Source: Escherichia phage BAU.Micro_ELP-22
Sequence record: OR699282.2
Length of the DNA: 64,000 bases
Reading direction: 5' to 3' (one strand)
The position numbers and the translations under genes were made by a program. The notes beneath the pieces are model-generated. The model was not told where the DNA came from. It did not search any database and was given only the letters and a program-made list of their open reading frames with translations. This document shows positions 8,163 through 60,753 of the stretch, one piece after another (within the stretch, counting starts at the first letter, position 1; each line of letters starts with the position of its first letter).

Positions 8163-8306
8163 ATGAAAACTTGTCAATGTGGTCAGAAATCTATTACTGG
8201 TTTAAAGCGGGGCGTTGCTCTTTGCCAGTACCATTATAATTTACAAGTATGGGGTAAAGAATGGGCCGACCAGGTGGAAGCAGCAAAGAAAGCAAAAAGT
8301 AAGTAA
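8163..8306 (+). CDS. small Cys-containing protein (47 aa), not in ORF track
   Basis: ATG 8163 after SD AAGGAA and PeSL; MKTCQCGQ...CQYHY possible metal-binding Cys cluster; stop 8304-8306. Confidence 0.5.
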   Translation: MKTCQCGQKSITGLKRGVALCQYHYNLQVWGKEWADQVEAAKKAKSK

Positions 8307-8318
8307 AAATATTATCAC

Positions 8319-8354
8319 AGTACTATTGACATAGTTTGATAGTACTGGCATAAT
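8319..8354 (+). promoter_or_regulatory. Class-II promoter (AGTACT-TTGACA ... AGTACT-CATAAT), no stem-loop
   Basis: AGTACT 8319-8324, TTGACA 8326-8331, AGTACT 8341-8346, CATAAT 8349-8354; near-identical at 11513-11548. Confidence 0.65.
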
Positions 8355-8397
8355 AGATTTTATCAAAACGACACATATTAATTTAAGGAATACCAAA

Positions 8398-8721
8398 ATG
8401 GCTAAAACTATCATCAACACCGTTTCCCTGGCTGCAATCCGTGCAATCAATGTTGACGGTAAACGTTGGACTGATTCATATGGCAATACTTATCATTCTT
8501 GTCATGTAAGCGTTGAACTGGATAACGGTTTGAATGATCTGGCGGTTGAATCATTTACTTATGGCTATGAAGATGCATATCAACAAACGGCGTTTGATCT
8601 CTTAAAGGAATCAGTAGACGGGCTTGATACTGTTGAAACCTCCCTTACTCGTTTATGTAATGATTTGTCTATCCCGTTGCATTGTACTGTACAGAATGTT
8701 AAACGTAAAAAAGATCTTTAA
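8398..8721 (+). CDS. hypothetical protein, early paralog family C (107 aa)
   Basis: ATG 8398, SD AAGGAA; shares RWTDSxGNTYHSC and DVKRKKD with 15606..15929. Confidence 0.7.
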   Translation: MAKTIINTVSLAAIRAINVDGKRWTDSYGNTYHSCHVSVELDNGLNDLAVESFTYGYEDAYQQTAFDLLKESVDGLDTVETSLTRLCNDLSIPLHCTVQNVKRKKDL

Positions 8722-19618: not shown

Positions 19619-19625
19619 AAACTAT

Positions 19626-19686
19626 TTGACAGTACTAACCAGTAATGTATAATGTTTTACATAGAGCGGGGGAATAGTTCTCCCGC
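19626..19686 (+). promoter_or_regulatory. PeSL-like promoter cassette
   Basis: TTGACA 19626-19631, TATAAT 19648-19653, hairpin GCGGGGGAATAGTTCTCCCGC 19666-19686. Confidence 0.7.
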
Positions 19687-19708
19687 CAATAGTTTGGAGT
19701 AAAACATT

Positions 19709-19909
19709 ATGTCTATCGCTATCGCCCTGGTTGAAGTACTGAAAGAAGCTAAAGCCAACCAGATCGACGTAAAGATCCAGGAACTACAAAACGGCGTAAT
19801 CGGCTGTACTTGTACCGCTGGTGGAGCGGCAGACTATCGAGAACACGAATCACTCGAATCACTGGTTCGGTATCTTACCATGATCGTTGATGATTGGAGA
19901 ATCATCTAA
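19709..19909 (+). CDS. hypothetical protein (66 aa)
   Basis: ATG 19709, SD GGAG. Confidence 0.65.
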   Translation: MSIAIALVEVLKEAKANQIDVKIQELQNGVIGCTCTAGGAADYREHESLESLVRYLTMIVDDWRII

Positions 19910-19930
19910 CAAAAAAGAATAAAAAAGGGA

Positions 19931-20004
19931 TTGACTCCGGTCAGTCCCTTTGCTATTATATACGCATAGACAAAAACTAGCCCACAGGGTGCATAGGTGT
20001 ATCC
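19931..20004 (+). repeat. Repeated intergenic element, type A
   Basis: TTGACTCCGGTCAGTCCCTTTGCTATTATAT then CGCATAGACAAAAACTAGCCCACAGGGTGCATAGGTGTATCC. Confidence 0.6.
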
Positions 20005-20070
20005 AAAATATATAGTTAATAACGGTGAGTAACTATCTGCTGGTGGAGTGAAAACTATTAATAAAAAAGT

Positions 20071-20100
20071 ATTGACAAAGTATATCAGTACTGCGATAAT
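20071..20100 (+). promoter_or_regulatory. sigma70-like promoter
   Basis: TTGACA 20071-20076, spacer with CAGTACTG, GATAAT 20095-20100. Confidence 0.55.
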
Positions 20101-20153
20101 GTATCTCGTAGGGCGGCAATGGTGCAACGGCCCACAAAGTTAGGAGATTCAAA

Positions 20154-21900: not shown

Positions 21901-22106
21901 AAACTATAACACGAACCCAATCATACGGTCTTATCTTGAAATACATGGACTTAATGGTGGATATCAGCAAAGACCTTCCTAAAACTGAAATTGAAGTTGC
22001 AAGAGCAGAGATCCGCATGTTGGCTGTACTGAACACAAACCATCAGGAAGATTATGTTGAAGAATGGATTCGATTTTTAATAGAAGATATTAAGAGTAAA
22101 CTATGA
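21897..22106 (+). CDS. F1 paralog (69 aa)
   Basis: ATGA overlap; LNTNHQEDYV core. Confidence 0.65.
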   Translation: MKTITRTQSYGLILKYMDLMVDISKDLPKTEIEVARAEIRMLAVLNTNHQEDYVEEWIRFLIEDIKSKL

Positions 22107-22318
22107 TTATTATAGAAAACTCATATCAATATACTGAACGCATCGCTGCCAGACAACTTGAAATCCTCATAATATACGAAGAGACTTCTGATTTAAACTT
22201 AGCCGAGGTATTGGAAAATGATATACTATTGGGTGCATTCTTAGGAACAGACTATCAGAAGTATTATGAGGAAAAGTATTTGTCATCTCTTGAGAAATAT
22301 ATCAGGAGCAAATTATGA
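22103..22318 (+). CDS. F1 paralog (71 aa)
   Basis: ATGA overlap; LGTDYQKYY core. Confidence 0.65.
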   Translation: MIIIENSYQYTERIAARQLEILIIYEETSDLNLAEVLENDILLGAFLGTDYQKYYEEKYLSSLEKYIRSKL

Positions 22319-22527
22319 TTTTTTTAACACCAGAAGAATATAAGAAACGTTTCAATTCCGCACAGGGTGAAATCTTACTTATATACCTTTCAAATGCAGA
22401 CCTTAACTTATCAAGGGTATTAGAAAAAGATTTACTTATGGGTGCATTCCTTGATACAGACTTTCAGGTGTATTATGTAGGGGAATACTTAATTGCACTT
22501 CAGAATTATATCAGGAGTAAACTATGA
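22315..22527 (+). CDS. F1 paralog (70 aa)
   Basis: ATGA overlap; LDTDFQVYYV core; close to 22103..22318. Confidence 0.65.
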   Translation: MIFLTPEEYKKRFNSAQGEILLIYLSNADLNLSRVLEKDLLMGAFLDTDFQVYYVGEYLIALQNYIRSKL

Positions 22528-36106: not shown

Positions 36107-36296
36107 TGTATTATTATGGGATGGGATAATGCTGATGAAAGAGTTATTTGAAGATCAGTTCAATACATATGTGGATAATATTCTTTATTCCAGCCGTGCT
36201 AGTCAACGAGGAAATCGTGCTTACAATATAGATTACCTATTAGTGGTGCTGAGTTCACAGTACACCTACGCTGTACAGAGGACATATTATGAATAA
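36093..36296 (+). CDS. hypothetical protein (67 aa)
   Basis: Small overlapping ORF, no core. Confidence 0.4.
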   Translation: MLMYDVLLWDGIMLMKELFEDQFNTYVDNILYSSRASQRGNRAYNIDYLLVVLSSQYTYAVQRTYYE

Positions 36297-36492
36297 TTTT
36301 AGAGATGTTGCTAAGGAGAAGTTCAAGTGCAGTTTAGATTACGGTTTAAATGATTTTCTTACATGCACAATGTACAGGAATGATGATTATGAGCAATCCG
36401 TAATTTCGTTGCACAGATATTTCGAAATAATTTACGCAAGATATCTTAGAAGGTTAGATGGGATAGGGGATTGGAATTATGATTACGTTTGA
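36289..36492 (+). CDS. hypothetical protein (67 aa)
   Basis: Small overlapping ORF, no core. Confidence 0.4.
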   Translation: MNNFRDVAKEKFKCSLDYGLNDFLTCTMYRNDDYEQSVISLHRYFEIIYARYLRRLDGIGDWNYDYV

Positions 36493-36688
36493 AGAGCCGG
36501 AAGTGTTAAGTTCGCATAGTATTAAGGGTTTTGAATACATGATGGATTTGATTTTGAAGGATACATATTTGGTTCAGAGTGTAGATAATACGGTACACCG
36601 AGTATTGAATTTATACGAGATGACGAGTCGAAGGCTTTGTGCGATGAAAAGGATTGAAGAAATCAAGCTTTCTAGGCTGAATAAATAG
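36479..36688 (+). CDS. hypothetical protein (69 aa)
   Basis: Small overlapping ORF, no core. Confidence 0.4.
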   Translation: MITFEEPEVLSSHSIKGFEYMMDLILKDTYLVQSVDNTVHRVLNLYEMTSRRLCAMKRIEEIKLSRLNK

Positions 36689-36884
36689 AGACGTTTCATT
36701 TTTACAGGCCGCAGGGGGTCAAAAAAATTTCCGCTGAAAAACATGCTAAGGTATATGTTTAATATAAAGTTTTATATTGTGTTTTTCAGAGTACAGTCCA
36801 TGTTTCCTGAAACAAAAAATACCCCGCCCCCGCAACGTGCTCCTTATATTGGAGTTTACCTTATTAATTATAGTAGAGATTAAG

Positions 36885-41492: not shown

Positions 41493-42025
41493 GAAAAATT
41501 AACATTAATGATTATGATGCATTACAAGATTTATCAAAAAAGATTCGCACTATCGTACCAGTACTGAAGAAATGCAGTACTGGTTTAATCGATCCTAGTA
41601 CTGTTGTTAATGAGAAGTACAATTTTCATTATGTATTACAGGGTACTGGGGCATTCCAGAAGTGTGAGGTGCGTGAGACACACGTAATTGATACATCATT
41701 GTTTTCTATTGGTGCACCTGTGTCGAATAATACTATTTTCCTAGACAACGCTGGAAATATTCAACAATTAACATTTAAGAAAAGGAAAAAGAACAATAAC
41801 ATTGGTGTGTATGCGATGAAGTGGGGTCAACCTGATTTGAAGCGTGAAATTCACATCCCTAAGTACAATTACAATGCATTTGACGAACAGTGTTTTCAAC
41901 TATCGTGTACTGACCCTGACTATGCTATTATTCAGTTCTATATGGAATTGCAGATAGCATTTAACAGTAATTTGTATATTAACTTATTGGCGATGAACAT
42001 CGATGAAGTATTCAAAAACATTTAA
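41489..42025 (+). CDS. F2 paralog, divergent (178 aa)
   Basis: ATGA overlap; DEQCFQLSCTD core variant. Confidence 0.55.
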   Translation: MRKININDYDALQDLSKKIRTIVPVLKKCSTGLIDPSTVVNEKYNFHYVLQGTGAFQKCEVRETHVIDTSLFSIGAPVSNNTIFLDNAGNIQQLTFKKRKKNNNIGVYAMKWGQPDLKREIHIPKYNYNAFDEQCFQLSCTDPDYAIIQFYMELQIAFNSNLYINLLAMNIDEVFKNI

Positions 42026-58323: not shown

Positions 58324-58629
58324 ATGGAAGACAATGGAATGAAATTTGATATGTTTGAAGGTGTACCAGAGTTCGATTTCAATAAACTTGAAAATGGTGA
58401 AGAATCAGAACTAGTAAGTGTTACACTAAAATCAGATACCAAAAAGAAATATTCCCCATCAGTTCGTTCACGTTCTCAAGAAGAATATGAAACCTTCATT
58501 GAGAGTATTCATTACGAAACGTTCCATCATGCAGATGGTACTCCGTATGAAGTTCGTGTTACAGTACTGAAGCCTGAAGTAAACCCAATGGAAAATCTAC
58601 GTCCTGTTTACTGCTGGGCAAGCCACTAA
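58324..58629 (+). CDS. hypothetical protein (101 aa)
   Basis: ATG 58324, SD AAGGAA; followed by strong terminator. Confidence 0.65.
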   Translation: MEDNGMKFDMFEGVPEFDFNKLENGEESELVSVTLKSDTKKKYSPSVRSRSQEEYETFIESIHYETFHHADGTPYEVRVTVLKPEVNPMENLRPVYCWASH

Positions 58630-58639
58630 TAAACCAAAG

Positions 58640-58669
58640 GACGGGATATAATATCTCGTCTTTTTTTTT
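58640..58669 (+). terminator. Rho-independent terminator
   Basis: GACGGGATAT..ATATCTCGTC stem then nine T. Confidence 0.8.
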
Positions 58670-58681
58670 GTCTGGAGATAT

Positions 58682-59530
58682 ATGAAACTTTATCTAATCG
58701 TTGACTACAGTAAGGGTTATTATGACTACGCAGAAGAATCTGAAGGGTATTGCTCGTCTACTAATGTCAATGTACGCACCAGTAGTACACATGAGCATGA
58801 ATCTATTACAAACCTAAAAGATTTCATCGCATATCGAGCATTTGAAAAGAATTTCTGTCGTAGTAGATATTCGAAGTTTGAGTACCCGTTAATTGATGTT
58901 CCTGATGAATTGATGTTCCAGTTAATGCTCACTGGAGTACAAGATTATGATTACATCGCGTACAATCACATTACTAAGAAAATTTATATCGGTACGTCAA
59001 CACATGACATTTCTATGTATGCATCATGCCCCGATGATCGAATGAATGATAGAAAATCATACTATAGTGGATCAGTTGGTTCAAATGATTCATTAAATAA
59101 AAATTTATTCTTTGAGTACGAGTTTGATAATCATCGAGGGAAAAAAGACCGAGAAGATTATTGTACTGAAATTGATAGTACCAATGGATATGAAGAAGTG
59201 AAAGAAGCGATAATGCCATATATCCTTGACAAGTACTACAAAGATTTTCAGTACTGTAGTAATTTTCTAATCCGAAATTCTATCATAATCGGTCGTCAAA
59301 GTACTGCATTCTCTAAGTACTACAATGATTCCCCTGTTGCTGAAAATGAAAACTGTAATATTCTCTCAATCCCACGTGAAGATATGGTATTCATGTTCAC
59401 ATCTTTCATTGAAGATGATGAGTTGTATGTAAAAAACAAGCACAGGTTCATGCCAAGTAAGATTGAGGTTATGAGAAGCTTAAGTGCAGATATCTTAACT
59501 AATTTCACTGAAAAAACAGAATACAACTGA
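58682..59530 (+). CDS. hypothetical protein (282 aa)
   Basis: ATG 58682, SD GGAGA. Confidence 0.65.
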   Translation: MKLYLIVDYSKGYYDYAEESEGYCSSTNVNVRTSSTHEHESITNLKDFIAYRAFEKNFCRSRYSKFEYPLIDVPDELMFQLMLTGVQDYDYIAYNHITKKIYIGTSTHDISMYASCPDDRMNDRKSYYSGSVGSNDSLNKNLFFEYEFDNHRGKKDREDYCTEIDSTNGYEEVKEAIMPYILDKYYKDFQYCSNFLIRNSIIIGRQSTAFSKYYNDSPVAENENCNILSIPREDMVFMFTSFIEDDELYVKNKHRFMPSKIEVMRSLSADILTNFTEKTEYN

Positions 59531-59560
59531 GACATACCATAAGTTTATGATATAATGTAA

Positions 59561-59594
59561 GGTGACAGCAGAATATGTTGTCGCCTTTTTTTTT
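59561..59594 (+). terminator. Rho-independent terminator
   Basis: GGTGACAGC-AGAATAT-GTTGTCGCC (G-U tolerant) then nine T. Confidence 0.7.
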
Positions 59595-60132
59595 AATCCT
59601 GAAAGGTTCCATATGGAAATGATTAAAGCCTAATCCACTCGAAAAGTAGAGGGTAGATGAGTAGTCCTTTCAGTACGAACAGCAAATGAAACCCGTTAGA
59701 TGATGGCATAGTTTGAACCACTCACGGCAATGCGGCTGTATAAAGAACTCCAATAGGATAAAGAGAGTTCCTCGATAGACATATAAGGATCGCACCTTAC
59801 CAATTATCTAAGGGAGATTTCATGAGAAATTTGCGGTCGTAATTTATACAAAATAGTTGCGTCCAAAATTCGTGAAATCAAATACAAGTACTGGTCATAT
59901 GGTATTTGTATTATGTGTCGGGATGTTTAAGACCGACGACCGTTGCTACAAGAACCGCGATAGAGAGAAACAGAGCAACCCGCTTTCGTCTCGTAAGAGA
60001 ATTCGTGATATGAACTATGTGAAGGCCACCAGCGTCAAACTTTTTTGTTCTTTCCCCTGCGGGGGGATGAAATATGCTCAAGCAAACCCCGTCAATATTA
60101 ATTAAAAGAAAATAGTACTTGTAGAATTAGAC
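59595..60132. other. Non-coding island, GC-richer than flanks
   Basis: No ORF with RBS; contains hairpin TCCCCTGCGGGGGGA near 60052-60068; no tRNA-like T-loop seen. Confidence 0.45.
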
Positions 60133-60753
60133 ATGCGTAGCATGGTAATTCTACTGATGTTGATGGAATCAACGTCACGTATATTCATTGATGTTTCCAT
60201 AGGAATAATGATGGCATTTATTAGAAAACAAAAAACTTTTACCTATAAGACTTTGGATTTTGTTGATTGTGAAAACCAATTACAAGATGAAGATAACTTT
60301 ACAGGATTTGTTGTTATTAAAGAAAAAGGATGCATTTCGTATATAAAGGAATTACAGAACGGCATTGAAGTTACTTCAGTCAAATTACTTCCTACACAAA
60401 AACCAACAATATTAAAAGCACAGTATGGTAATTATTTCGAGGAAAGATATAGTAATAATTTAATAAGTGTTAAGGCTCATATTATAAAAGGAGAACTAGA
60501 AGGAGAATATAGAAAATACAACCCACAAGGAAAATGTGTTTGGGTTAAATACTTCAATTCAGGAAATGATGTAACATCTGAAATAATTGAGTTTTTAGGT
60601 TTAACATGTACCCCTGAAACTCTTCATGATTACAAATTTAATACTGAAGAAGAGTTTAATCTGATGATGCGTTATGGTTCACATTTTAAATTTTTATATG
60701 AATATAACATTGACAGTAGTACTTTTGATAAGATAGTACAGAACTGTCTCTAA
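60133..60753 (+). CDS. hypothetical protein (206 aa; alternative start ATG 60208 with SD AGGAA)
   Basis: Long ORF; possible MORN-like G..Y..NG repeats (weak). Confidence 0.55.
   Translation: MRSMVILLMLMESTSRIFIDVSIGIMMAFIRKQKTFTYKTLDFVDCENQLQDEDNFTGFVVIKEKGCISYIKELQNGIEVTSVKLLPTQKPTILKAQYGNYFEERYSNNLISVKAHIIKGELEGEYRKYNPQGKCVWVKYFNSGNDVTSEIIEFLGLTCTPETLHDYKFNTEEEFNLMMRYGSHFKFLYEYNIDSSTFDKIVQNCL

Follow-up and report, generated by a model that had tools for sequence, protein, structure and literature searches.

Beyond rRNA, RNase P, tmRNA and introns, only a handful of large structured RNA classes of bacteria and phages are known, mainly OLE, GOLLD, ROOL, HEARO and raiA. Each such class has brought unexpected biology, the latest being RNA-only nanocages. 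PeSL are promoter/stem-loop cassettes of T4-type phages. T4 itself has several replication origins per genome, at which middle-mode promoters are used. In ROOL and GOLLD, loop-strand pairings found by covariation are intermolecular bridges of RNA-only cages, as seen by cryo-EM (PMC12286853). In PA5oct, a relative of 121Q, RaK2 and GAP32, the ORF-free transcribed regions ncRNA001-004 were measured at 236-619 nt by RNA-seq, and two of them made up 1-5% of phage reads (PMC7318152); phages of the wider group therefore do express long ncRNAs. A promoter class composed of TGAAACG and a -10 box is known for CBB and GAP32, and in CBB lies mainly upstream of DNA-synthesis genes (PMC5259590).

The window analysed was a 64,000-nucleotide stretch of Escherichia phage BAU.Micro_ELP-22 (OR699282.2). 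The upstream gene ends at 59530 and is followed by an ORF-free interval at 59531-60207. The region is non-coding and conserved, with a + strand fold kept by compensatory mutations, and the RNA family matches no described one in Rfam 15 or in the literature found. We consider it probable that a large structured non-coding RNA is encoded by a gene of its own at 59527-60154 (+), with a core of about 470 nt (59628-60095) in a whole unit of about 590 nt. Features of the predicted gene and its flanks, including the helices of a manual model of 40 aligned sequences, are as follows.

59527-59556, + strand: predicted RNA gene promoter, with -35-like box CTGAGACA (59527-59534), 13-nt spacer to TG and extended -10 box TGATATAAT (59548-59556)
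59559-59596, + strand: hairpin (59559-59587) and T9 run located by the terminator scan, predicted intrinsic terminator of the upstream gene
59597-59629, + strand: 5' leader, with semi-conserved CCUGAAAGG motif, then variable hairpin UUCCAUAUGGAA (59607-59618)
59630-59676, + strand: domain with hairpin Pa-Pc (59630-40/59649-56) and conserved GAAAAGUA loop
59656-59661, + strand: near-invariant GAUGAG, of which UGAG is fully invariant
59661-63/59674-76, + strand: helix Pd
59679-59739, + strand: domain closed by helix Pe, ACAGC (59679-83) with GCUGU (59735-39)
59693-59700/59722-27, + strand: helices Pf and Pg, inside the Pe domain
59745-50/59765-70, + strand: hairpin Pi
59774-85, + strand: highly conserved GAUAGACAUAUA, 8 of 12 positions invariant
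59785-88/59795-98, + strand: hairpin Pj
59809-16, + strand: block UAAGGGAG, core AAGGGA invariant
59817-59880, + strand: variable central region, carrying module AUACAAAAUAGUUGCGUCCAAAAUUCG (59846-59872)
59881-92/59901-12, + strand: hairpin Pk of the 3' domain
59893-59900/60008-15, + strand: pseudoknot PK2, Pk loop GGUCAUAU pairing with AUAUGAAC
59916-20/59934-38, + strand: hairpin Pm
59942-46/59975-79, + strand: pseudoknot PK1, GUUGC with GCAAC
59956-60/60003-07, + strand: helix Po
59963-67/59983-87, + strand: helix Pp
59990-92/59997-99, + strand: helix Pq
60030-38, + strand: conserved CAGCGUCAA in the 3' part of the core (60016-60095), followed by a U-rich linker
60052-57/60061-66, + strand: G/C hairpin with 6-bp stem and loop UGC (CCCCUGCGGGGGG at 60054-60066), then GAUGAAA
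60083-95, + strand: CAAACCCCGUCAA, whose UCA (60092-94) can pair with UGA of GAUGAG, closing the core
60096-60154, + strand: probable 3' portion of the predicted transcript, an A+U-rich linker with AGUAC (60114-18), then 3' hairpin GUAGAAUUA...UAAUUCUAC (60121-60154)
60202-60213, + strand: probable downstream gene start, RBS AGGA (60202-60205) and ATG at 60208 or 60211, bounding the non-coding region

An earlier note had described this locus as a 540-bp island with no credible ORF, and the absence of a conserved ORF holds over the wider interval given above. The 82-aa TTG ORF at 59857-60105 is not conserved. It is missing from the JNE01 copy, which is 90% identical, and the longest open stretch varies in strand, frame and position among 38 family members. 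A protein-coding gene at 59857-60105 was rejected on the grounds that no reading frame is conserved among these 38 homologues. The island had also been called GC-richer than its surroundings. This is true (40.0%; window mean 34.4%, sd 4.0 in 538-nt windows) and makes a weak cue: the excess is modest (+1.4 SD), 11% of same-size windows equal or exceed it, and composition by itself is not significant. GC content peaks locally at 45.5% (59900-60099), and the modest excess most plausibly follows from the G-C-rich helices. The G/C hairpin noticed near 60052-60068 is real and is kept in 40 of 40 aligned relatives; a C-G/U-G alternation in its stem (helix 15) is strand-specific. The failure to find tRNA signatures was confirmed, and tRNA or tmRNA was ruled out, as ARAGORN found 0 such genes in the window. 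Both blastn at word size 7 and nhmmer gave a single copy of the element in the 64-kb window.

The downstream gene had been taken to start immediately after the island, at 60133, which is probably wrong. From the sequence, the ATG at 60208 or 60211 is the most likely start. The ATG at 60133 falls within the loop of hairpin 60121-60154, which has counterparts 3' of other copies, and the phrog_16210 profile aligns from residue 1 of the shorter, 181-aa protein. Homologues of the downstream gene in other genera are annotated with 650-720-nt gaps in front. The 181-aa protein is followed by a Dam methylase and a nucleotidyltransferase, the only flanking proteins identified with Pfam and PHROGs.

Relatives were found with blastn in 61 of 50,697 phage records, at 269 places in total. 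Matches in distant genera are 67-76% identical over about 480 nt and end before the flanking genes. Conservation runs along the whole region, and this makes the element more than chance. The carrier genera share almost no DNA identity elsewhere. Full-length relatives occupy unannotated 650-840-nt gaps in jumbo-phage records. The 57 unique copies obtained with nhmmer are all full length with the same invariant blocks. In IMG/VR, the pattern CACGGCAATGCGGC-N30-60-GATAGACATATA matched jumbo-phage contigs only. A 35-kb contig (L196) matching a second two-block IMG/VR pattern was discarded as chance, since it was unmatched by nhmmer. The earlier note would have taken its idea as refuted by the lack of a transcript and of a database match together with ordinary composition; many sequence homologues exist, and this refuting case does not apply.

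Each jumbo-phage genome carries 3-5 copies, and paralogues within a genome are just 60-70% identical. Copies of determinable orientation all lie on one strand within their genome. Three full-length copies were confirmed in 121Q, at 90, 193 and 327 kb; their contexts are downstream of a sigma-factor gene, the context seen in the window, and between endonuclease VII (-) and a (-) hypothetical gene. Every CBB copy has a different gene context. The paralogues are old and occupy orthologous positions across genera, and are therefore not recent transpositions. No paralogue-specific single-stranded guide-like segments were found, group-specific positions lying mostly in covarying helices. Several diverged copies per genome (3-5) with the same core and no such segment would also fit a cis role tied to genome position.

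Three bacterial copies were found, in chromosomal mobile elements of E. coli, Serratia and an Enterobacteriaceae MAG. A BLASTN check for host-derived sequence had been suggested, and a host origin was not borne out: a relative is present in only 2 of 5426 E. coli genomes, inside a mobile island. The E. coli copy (LR-29-1 island) lies in an integrative island beside the candidate defence system PADLOC PDC-M45 (DuOB, DUF488, mSLOG-DUF4326). The Serratia and MAG copies adjoin an integrase and a CI-type repressor, a flank that is a common site of accessory cargo genes in integrated elements. These bacterial copies are single, intact and at the cargo ends of the elements, and retain phage-type promoter boxes. 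No protein common to the three bacterial neighbourhoods, or to these and the phage loci, was found.

The manual model contains 84 pairs in at least 15 helices, with 2 pseudoknots. Of all cells, 95.5% were paired; shuffles gave 75.5% and slid partners 39-43%. Compensatory both-side changes were present in 57 of 84 pairs (635 cells). For four of five measures, percent paired and covariation score among them, none of 500 shuffles came up to the observed value. RNAalifold predicted 60 pairs, 30 with compensatory changes. Single-sequence folding of the + strand was only mildly better than shuffles (z = -1.75; - strand z = -0.58). Alternations of G-U/G-C and U-G/C-G were seen in helices 8, 12, 13 and 15, and the fold therefore belongs to the + strand.

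Helices 1 and 3 have both-side changes in 6/8 and 2/3 pairs, with 89% and 100% of cells paired; 3/5 pairs of helix 4 covary (100% paired), and all 6 pairs of helix 6 show both-side changes. The 3' domain (59881-60015, helices 8-14) has both-side changes in 34/43 pairs and 93-100% of cells paired. Both pseudoknots covary. PK1 occurs as GUUGC/GCAAC, GUUGU/ACAAC, GUUAC/GUAAC and GUCAU/AUGAC. Each paralogue has its own PK2 pairing, with UCAUAU/AUAUGA, AUUGUAU/AUACAAU and AUUGCAU/AUGCAAU in the three 121Q copies. The hairpin of the 5' leader is kept with wholly different sequences, such as CCCGAAAGGG, CCUUGAAGAACAAGG and CUAGUUAUUACUAG. A module with consensus AAUAUAGAUCCGUCCAAAAUU lies in the central region in most paralogue groups, inside hairpin Pq of the 3' domain in others, and at both places in L151, L152 and the E. 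coli copy; these differences in position are a swapping of peripheral modules.

Some 95 positions never vary in the alignment of 40 sequences. The long runs of such positions (CACGGCAAUGCGGC, AAGGGA and a loop carrying ACCCGC) fall largely in junctions and loops of the model. The first of these, a 14-nt block at 59723-59736, is identical in 40 of 40 sequences. The domain at 59679-59739 also contains near-invariant GAAACCCGU, of which only CCG is invariant. Several junction pairings and the long-range closing helix are invariant, hence outside the reach of covariation; the closing helix (helix 2) has no covariation proof for this reason.

The -35-like element of the predicted promoter contains GAGACA, and the promoter scan gave 10/12 matches plus TG. 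GAGACA-N16-TATAAT occurs once in the 64-kb window. Each of 56 family copies is preceded by an equivalent promoter-like box pair at 64-126 nt (median 97) before the conserved GATGAG, with a TG extension in 53 and a TGAAAC, GAGACA or GGGACA box in 53. 

The earlier note had placed the island between two terminator-bounded genes, of which only half holds. An upstream terminator hairpin with T9 is present at 59559-59587; it lies 3' of the RNA's own -10 box, and for this reason is probably also the 5' stem-loop of the RNA. The syntenic copies of Munch, GAP32, CBB, XbC2 and Serratia phage BF have a hairpin and T-run at this point too, in a different sequence; elsewhere among the paralogues, the terminator comes before the promoter. 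A hairpin plus U-run just past the -10 box could stop many transcripts. At the 3' end, no canonical terminator follows hairpin 60121-60154 in the window. A long hairpin is present at the equivalent place downstream of most copies, usually with apical GAACG..AGUGAG; that of the window is a diverged form. The literature yielded no transcriptome of these phages.

The suspicion of a functional element was strongly upheld in the form of a non-coding RNA, on deep conservation, compensatory changes and a dedicated promoter; host-derived DNA, a tRNA and an Rfam family were not supported. The Rfam search that had been proposed, with the 4227 covariance models of Rfam 15 at gathering thresholds, gave no match in the 64-kb window; the models cover ROOL, GOLLD, OLE, HEARO, RNase P, tmRNA, group I/II introns and riboswitches. 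At E <= 10, the window element and eight other copies gave nothing meaningful and no recurring match. The sole match inside the window element was Hatchet (14.6 bits, E = 8.8, gathering 51); the other matches were outside it, at the flanking terminator or within the downstream gene. RNase P RNA was rejected: its models gave no match at gathering or at E <= 10. The resemblance is by eye only, between ACAG..AACCCGCUU and CR-IV/V, and the reading was dropped because this segment forms a local hairpin loop and the covarying PK1 rather than a P4-like helix. A group I/II self-splicing intron was also rejected, since the element lies between complete, separately conserved genes, has its own predicted promoter and gave no Rfam match even at E <= 10. 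The family profile detected no homology in PA5oct 1-30000 (ncRNA001 and ncRNA002), and PA5oct gave no blastn match. In the literature on phage ncRNAs, Asteriusvirus transcriptomes and the invariant blocks, no description of the element was found. A paper that catalogues more than 10,000 candidate structured RNAs of viruses does not mention jumbo phages in its text.

Our best guess is a compactly folded RNA acting in trans: it may work in an RNP or as a ribozyme, or self-assemble as the ornate RNAs ROOL and GOLLD do. The RNA would be transcribed by host RNA polymerase from about 59563, fold into a compact tertiary structure and act as an RNA machine rather than as a DNA site or mRNA leader. It could provide the scaffold or catalytic core of an RNP, be a ribozyme, or assemble with itself into an RNA-only particle of the ROOL/GOLLD kind, in which PK2 might bridge two molecules. 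A protein specific to jumbo phages is a less likely partner than the RNA itself or a host component, given that the RNA persists in unrelated mobile elements. More tentatively, and with considerable doubt on our part, the family may be the founder of a new class of large ribozyme-like or self-assembling RNAs. The invariant junctions and the two pseudoknots would then build a catalytic or cage-forming core, PK2 would be a bridge between molecules, the 3-5 paralogues of a giant phage would each make a homo-oligomer of their own, and the rare copies in bacterial defence islands would turn this activity on jumbo phages or use it independently of them.

The main rival of the trans-acting reading is a replication-primer RNA. 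Each copy would mark an origin, its promoter driving a folded pre-primer of about 550 nt, and at the A+T-rich stretch that follows CGUCA this RNA would form a lasting R-loop and prime the leading strand, as in T4 oriF/oriG and in ColE1 RNA II, which is of similar length to this RNA. The 3-5 dispersed copies per genome with every orientable one on the same strand, their positions in 121Q, the A+T-rich segment 3' of the core and the membership of the promoter in the TGAAACG class, which lies mainly before DNA-synthesis genes in CBB (PMC5259590), are consistent with this. One paralogue adjoins the recombination genes gp46 and endonuclease VII, and one core without guide-like segments fits a position-tied cis role. 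However, the conservation is that of a globular RNA, with its invariant positions, two pseudoknots and swapped modules, whereas to our knowledge no sequence or structure is common to the T4 origins. The integrated elements with intact single copies at their cargo ends are passively replicated, and neither a GC-skew inflection nor iterons or other DNA-level repeats were seen at the site; we regard an origin primer as unlikely. A decoy or mimic RNA in phage-host conflict, a sub-case of the trans-acting reading with a purpose of its own, would imitate a host or phage RNA or sponge a protein or small signal to block defence, and island copies would conversely titrate a jumbo-phage factor; this is to us slightly more doubtful still. 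The PDC-M45 neighbour, the usual cargo position of the Serratia and MAG copies and the phage-type boxes kept in bacteria would suit it. The case is based on three bacterial instances, no defence protein is consistently adjacent to these, and the size and invariance far exceed those of known decoy RNAs. No similarity to a host RNA was found, with nothing in Rfam and 5424 of 5426 E. coli genomes without a match.

Gene order bears on a giant cis-acting 5' leader, a riboswitch-like or antitermination element for the downstream genes. Most copies precede + strand genes with no strong terminator between, some paralogues have an internal hairpin and U-run resembling an attenuator, and the window copy and the Yersinia group-B copy each have a methyltransferase gene downstream. 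Against this, the 121Q group-B copy is flanked on both sides by annotated genes on the opposite strand, and downstream genes are unrelated among paralogues and in the bacterial islands. The conserved part stops 60-110 nt short of the next RBS, and the gene after several copies has a sigma-70-like promoter of its own, 3' of the RNA. We therefore hold a leader to be improbable in high degree. That the region is a remnant, whether a decayed protein gene, a degenerate intron or mobile element, or a chance long spacer, we can hardly credit. The GC excess alone would allow it, being not significant, and HNH endonuclease genes lie close to some copies. The covariation data already contradict this reading, the substitutions in helices being compensatory, and 57 of 57 copies are full length with the same invariant blocks. 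No ORF or frame is conserved, no gene is interrupted by the element, no group I/II intron signal was seen in Rfam even at E <= 10, and the old paralogues keep orthologous positions across genera.

What would be new is a large structured RNA gene of about 500-600 nt, as predicted from its sequence, in a gap left empty by annotation. In 61 phage records these gaps are blank or hold spurious small ORFs, an annotation that could be corrected. Several old, diverged copies per genome and cargo copies in bacterial mobile islands are unusual for large structured RNAs, and bear on how giant phages organise infection. An origin primer, if that rival were true, would bear on the replication start of a 350-kb phage genome. 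The carriers, among them 121Q, PBECO4, slurp01, GAP32 and CBB, are cultured and infect E. coli K-12 or culturable enterobacteria, and the predictions are therefore directly testable.

Compared with known systems, the element has the size, phage origin, covarying helices and pseudoknots, and lack of a fixed neighbour of a ROOL/GOLLD-type ornate RNA, as a functional kind. It shares with ROOL, GOLLD and OLE a length of several hundred nt, encoding by phages or prophages, an elaborate fold with several pseudoknots and no consistently adjacent protein partner. PK2 is a loop-strand pairing of the ROOL/GOLLD bridge type, predicted here from sequence, and is private to each paralogue. However, there is no sequence or structure homology to these RNAs (cmscan, all of Rfam 15, E <= 10, nine copies). 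ROOL and GOLLD belong to Firmicutes, rumen or marine hosts, whereas the carriers here are phages of Enterobacteriaceae with several diverged copies per genome, and the copies examined are not beside tRNA genes (ARAGORN in the window; annotated flanks of fetched phages). ColE1 RNA II and T4 oriF/oriG resemble it as non-coding transcripts of about 550 nt (predicted here) with their own promoter and an A+T-rich end. Unlike RNA II, it lacks an antisense partner of the RNA I type, and no RNase H site is known in it. The origin RNAs do not have this degree of invariant junction sequence and pseudoknotting, and copies of the present element also reside in passively replicated chromosomal islands. Its start resembles the PeSL cassettes of T4-type phages and the TGAAACG class of CBB and GAP32, with an extended -10 box followed by a hairpin and T-run in the window and -35 variant boxes upstream of all copies. 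Those cassettes are short units before protein genes, whereas here the cassette heads a conserved, predicted non-coding transcript of about 590 nt.

The window belongs to a jumbo coliphage of the Asteriusvirus type. The region was 99% identical to Escherichia phages slurp01 and SP27 (blastn) and 97.6% identical to 121Q 192808-193347. The earlier note had described a GC-richer, ORF-free island with a G/C hairpin and no tRNA signature, and as a whole this description was correct. No credible CDS was found from 59531 to about 60207, the hairpin was located at 60052-60066, and ARAGORN found neither tRNA nor tmRNA in the window. GC content is raised (40.0% against 34.4% for the window, with a peak of 45.5% at 59900-60099), but by merely 1.4 SD, a value reached by 11% of equal-sized windows; composition is not what sets the region apart. 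The region carries a conserved, doubly pseudoknotted RNA fold that occurs in several copies per genome, with its own predicted promoter. Features of the locus were as follows.

58682-59530, + strand: upstream gene (ORF scan)
59529-59556: predicted promoter of the element, GAGACA-N16-TATAAT, the sole such site in 64 kb
59559-59587: hairpin followed by a T9 run, 3' of the upstream gene (terminator scan)
59881-59892/59901-59912: hairpin whose loop pairs with 60008-60015, pseudoknot PK2 (covariation)
59942-59946 with 59975-59979: pseudoknot PK1, GUUGC with GCAAC, the latter in the loop of hairpin 59963-59967/59983-59987 (covariation)
60133: ATG, listed start of the downstream ORF (ORF scan), within the loop of the element's 3' hairpin 60121-60154

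The sole sizeable ORF in the element (59857-60105, 82 aa, TTG start) was rejected as a gene: the longest open stretch shifts strand, frame and position among 38 relatives, and the ORF is absent even from the JNE01 copy, which is 90% identical. The 3' hairpin around ATG 60133 has counterparts downstream of other copies, and the phrog_16210 profile aligns from residue 1 of a shorter, 181-aa downstream product. The downstream gene likely starts at ATG 60208 or 60211, preceded by AGGA at 60202-60205. Other 500-800-nt stretches without long ORFs, e.g. 19619-20153, 36107-36884 and 41493-42002, were defined with a crude ATG-only gene model and probably hold small or minus-strand genes; one has 40.7% GC.

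The element matched no Rfam 15 family, including ROOL, GOLLD, OLE, HEARO, RNase P, tmRNA and introns, and the whole 64-kb window gave no match at gathering level. An intron-like element was rejected as no gene is interrupted. The relative PA5oct abundantly transcribes two RNA-seq-defined RNAs, ncRNA001 and ncRNA002 (L150; PA5oct 8263-8498 and 21951-22401), to which no homology was detectable; related jumbo phages may thus carry other, unrelated long ncRNAs. A literature search found no description of the element.

The 538-nt region was matched in 61 of 50,697 phage records (blastn), from phages of Escherichia, Salmonella, Erwinia, Yersinia, Xanthomonas, Serratia, Cronobacter, Pectobacterium and Klebsiella. 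Distant genera gave 67-76% identity across 83-92% of its length; a longer, 701-nt query was matched over at least 80% of its length in 33 closely related records only. In Munch, GAP32, Serratia phage BF, CBB, XbC2, Hallingskeid and Kae01 the match lies within a syntenic unannotated gap of 650-720 nt, in the order hypothetical gene, gap, hypothetical gene, Dam methylase, nucleotidyltransferase. Each matched record contains 3-5 matching places. Best matches in Yersinia phage Yen9-04 and Xanthomonas phage XaC1 sit in other gene contexts, so the element is paralogous. Two-block pattern scans of IMG/VR returned matches from jumbo-phage-size contigs only, and metagenome scans added 33 stretches, many on short contigs. 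With nhmmer, these scans yielded 57 unique full-length copies of 475-610 nt.

Paralogues from a single genome share just 60-70% identity. Paralogue groups are common to several genera, and the duplications are therefore older than those genera. Full copies in 121Q lie at 90.3, 192.8 and 326.7 kb, and Mimasviruses and Eneladusviruses have 4-5; no second copy was found within the window (blastn, nhmmer). All copies share one strand in every genome-sized contig (121Q, Yen9-04, CBB, GAP32, Serratia phage BF and two UViGs); in 121Q this includes one copy whose annotated neighbours both lie on the opposite strand. HNH genes lie near copies in 121Q (gp170) and CBB (gp347). Among orthologous copies, an HNH-type homing-endonuclease-like ORF (MEQWKIITGFEKYEVSNFGNVRN...) follows 3' in a metagenomic phage (L154, from ~3470), and its relative L143 has an ADP-ribosylglycohydrolase-like gene (MIDNRDRAIGALVGLAVGDALG...) at the corresponding place.

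In alignments, invariant blocks alternate with hairpins of wholly different yet still complementary sequence. Blocks invariant in 40/40 sequences include CACGGCAAUGCGGC, the AAGGGA core of UAAGGGAG, GACCGU and ACCCGC; GAUAGACAUAUA and CGUCA are highly conserved with few variable positions. Of 60 pairs predicted by RNAalifold, 30 show compensatory changes. A model of 84 pairs in 15 helices was built by hand, guided by an all-against-all covariation scan, and tested on 40 sequences of <93% identity. Standard pairs were formed in 95.5% of cells, compared with 75.5% in column shuffles and 39-43% with partners slid by 1-3 columns. Pairs changed on both sides numbered 57 (shuffled 45.0, slid 20-27) and cells changed on both sides 635 (shuffled 179, slid 67-110). 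The observed percent paired, both of these counts and the covariation score were reached by 0/500 shuffles, and the number of further pair types by 10/500. Both pseudoknots are supported by covariation. The fold was assigned to the + strand because the frequent G-U/G-C and U-G/C-G alternations in helices would read as C-A mismatches on the opposite strand; single-sequence folding agrees weakly (z = -1.75 against -0.58 for the - strand).

Most groups have a peripheral module, AAUAUAGAUCCGUCCAAAAUU, in the central region; other groups have it inside a 3'-domain hairpin, and a few have it in both places. Relocation of this kind occurs in large RNAs whose tertiary fold is defined. Some paralogue groups (121Q_b (L133), L120, Yen_b (L006), L143, L148, L145, L183 and the E. 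coli copy) have a terminator-like hairpin and U6-8 run inserted within the conserved RNA, immediately 5' of its last G/C hairpin (columns ~577-607 of alignment A3), which could be an internal attenuator or merely an additional stem.

A -10 hexamer was located 64-126 nt (median 97) upstream of the conserved GATGAG in all 56 copies with enough upstream sequence. It carries a TG extension in 53 and is preceded, about 17 nt upstream, by a TGAAAC/GAGACA/GGGACA box in 53. For CBB and GAP32, the TGAAACG/-10 class has been reported as a second promoter type, RpoD-like but divergent (Buttimer et al., PMC5259590). In the window's group the upstream gene's terminator hairpin sits just past the -10 box and would therefore form the RNA's 5' stem-loop; in other groups it precedes the promoter. 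A terminator-like hairpin at 58636-58673, after the gene ending at 58629, also holds a -10-like box, in its loop (GATATAAT); this and the -10-then-hairpin order at 59548-59596 suggest that the phage has many combined promoter/terminator cassettes. An A+U-rich linker and then the long hairpin 60121-60154 follow the core. From the predicted promoters, the element would be its own transcription unit. An mRNA leader is disfavoured by the element's own promoter boxes, the separate next-gene promoter after the long 3' hairpin in several groups, the annotated opposite-strand genes on both flanks of the 326.7-kb copy of 121Q, and the different neighbours of each paralogue.

Scanning 185,579 species genomes turned up two matches, both chromosomal rather than on phage contigs. 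The Serratia sp. 2723 copy (L152 5387-5928) lies directly after a large serine recombinase, beside arsC, and that of an Enterobacteriaceae MAG (L151 6448-7054) between thiM and a CI-type repressor; these are cargo ends of integrated elements. Matches in 2 of 5426 complete E. coli genomes led to rejection of host-derived DNA as a source. One is EEC_W5 (NZ_CM130020.1 245242-245618). The other, LR-29-1 (NZ_AP027515.1; L200 11983-12568), on which the E. coli description rests, has an intact full-length copy (365 bits) with promoter boxes, within a 1.4-kb gap left unannotated in an integrative island adjoining ffs. The island's order is IS3-split integrase, 303-aa protein, RNA, 257-aa protein and PDC-M45, a candidate defence system (DuOB, DUF488, mSLOG-DUF4326). 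Plasmids gave no match, and no protein was common to the three bacterial neighbourhoods. In the bacterial copies all invariant blocks and the promoter boxes are preserved; at 64-79% identity to the nearest phage copy, these copies are separate lineages under selection. The RNA apparently needs neither a dedicated adjacent protein nor a jumbo-phage setting to work.

The element is very probably a conserved structured RNA gene, and we lean towards action in trans as a folded RNA. The product would be a stable RNA of compact tertiary structure, which could be the core of an RNP, a ribozyme or an assembly made of RNA only. The chief alternative is an origin pre-primer RNA resembling ColE1 RNA II or the T4 oriF/oriG transcripts. 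This would account for several dispersed same-strand copies, for the promoter class, for the A+T-rich 3' flank, and for the absence of paralogue-specific single-stranded segments, none of which were found among the copies; the invariant junctions, and the lone copies in islands that are replicated passively, are a poor fit to it. The one pointer to a decoy in phage-host conflict is the setting of the copies in bacterial islands.

The finding is real, and far more interesting than its composition implied: a candidate new class of large structured RNA, predicted from sequence, in well-known cultured coliphages. In kind, the element comes closest to ROOL and GOLLD, ornate phage and prophage RNAs without an assigned function. 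Their covarying loop-strand "pseudoknots" turned out in both cases to be intermolecular bridges of nanocages (PMC12286853). PK2, whose sequence varies among paralogues of one genome, is likewise a covarying loop-strand pairing.
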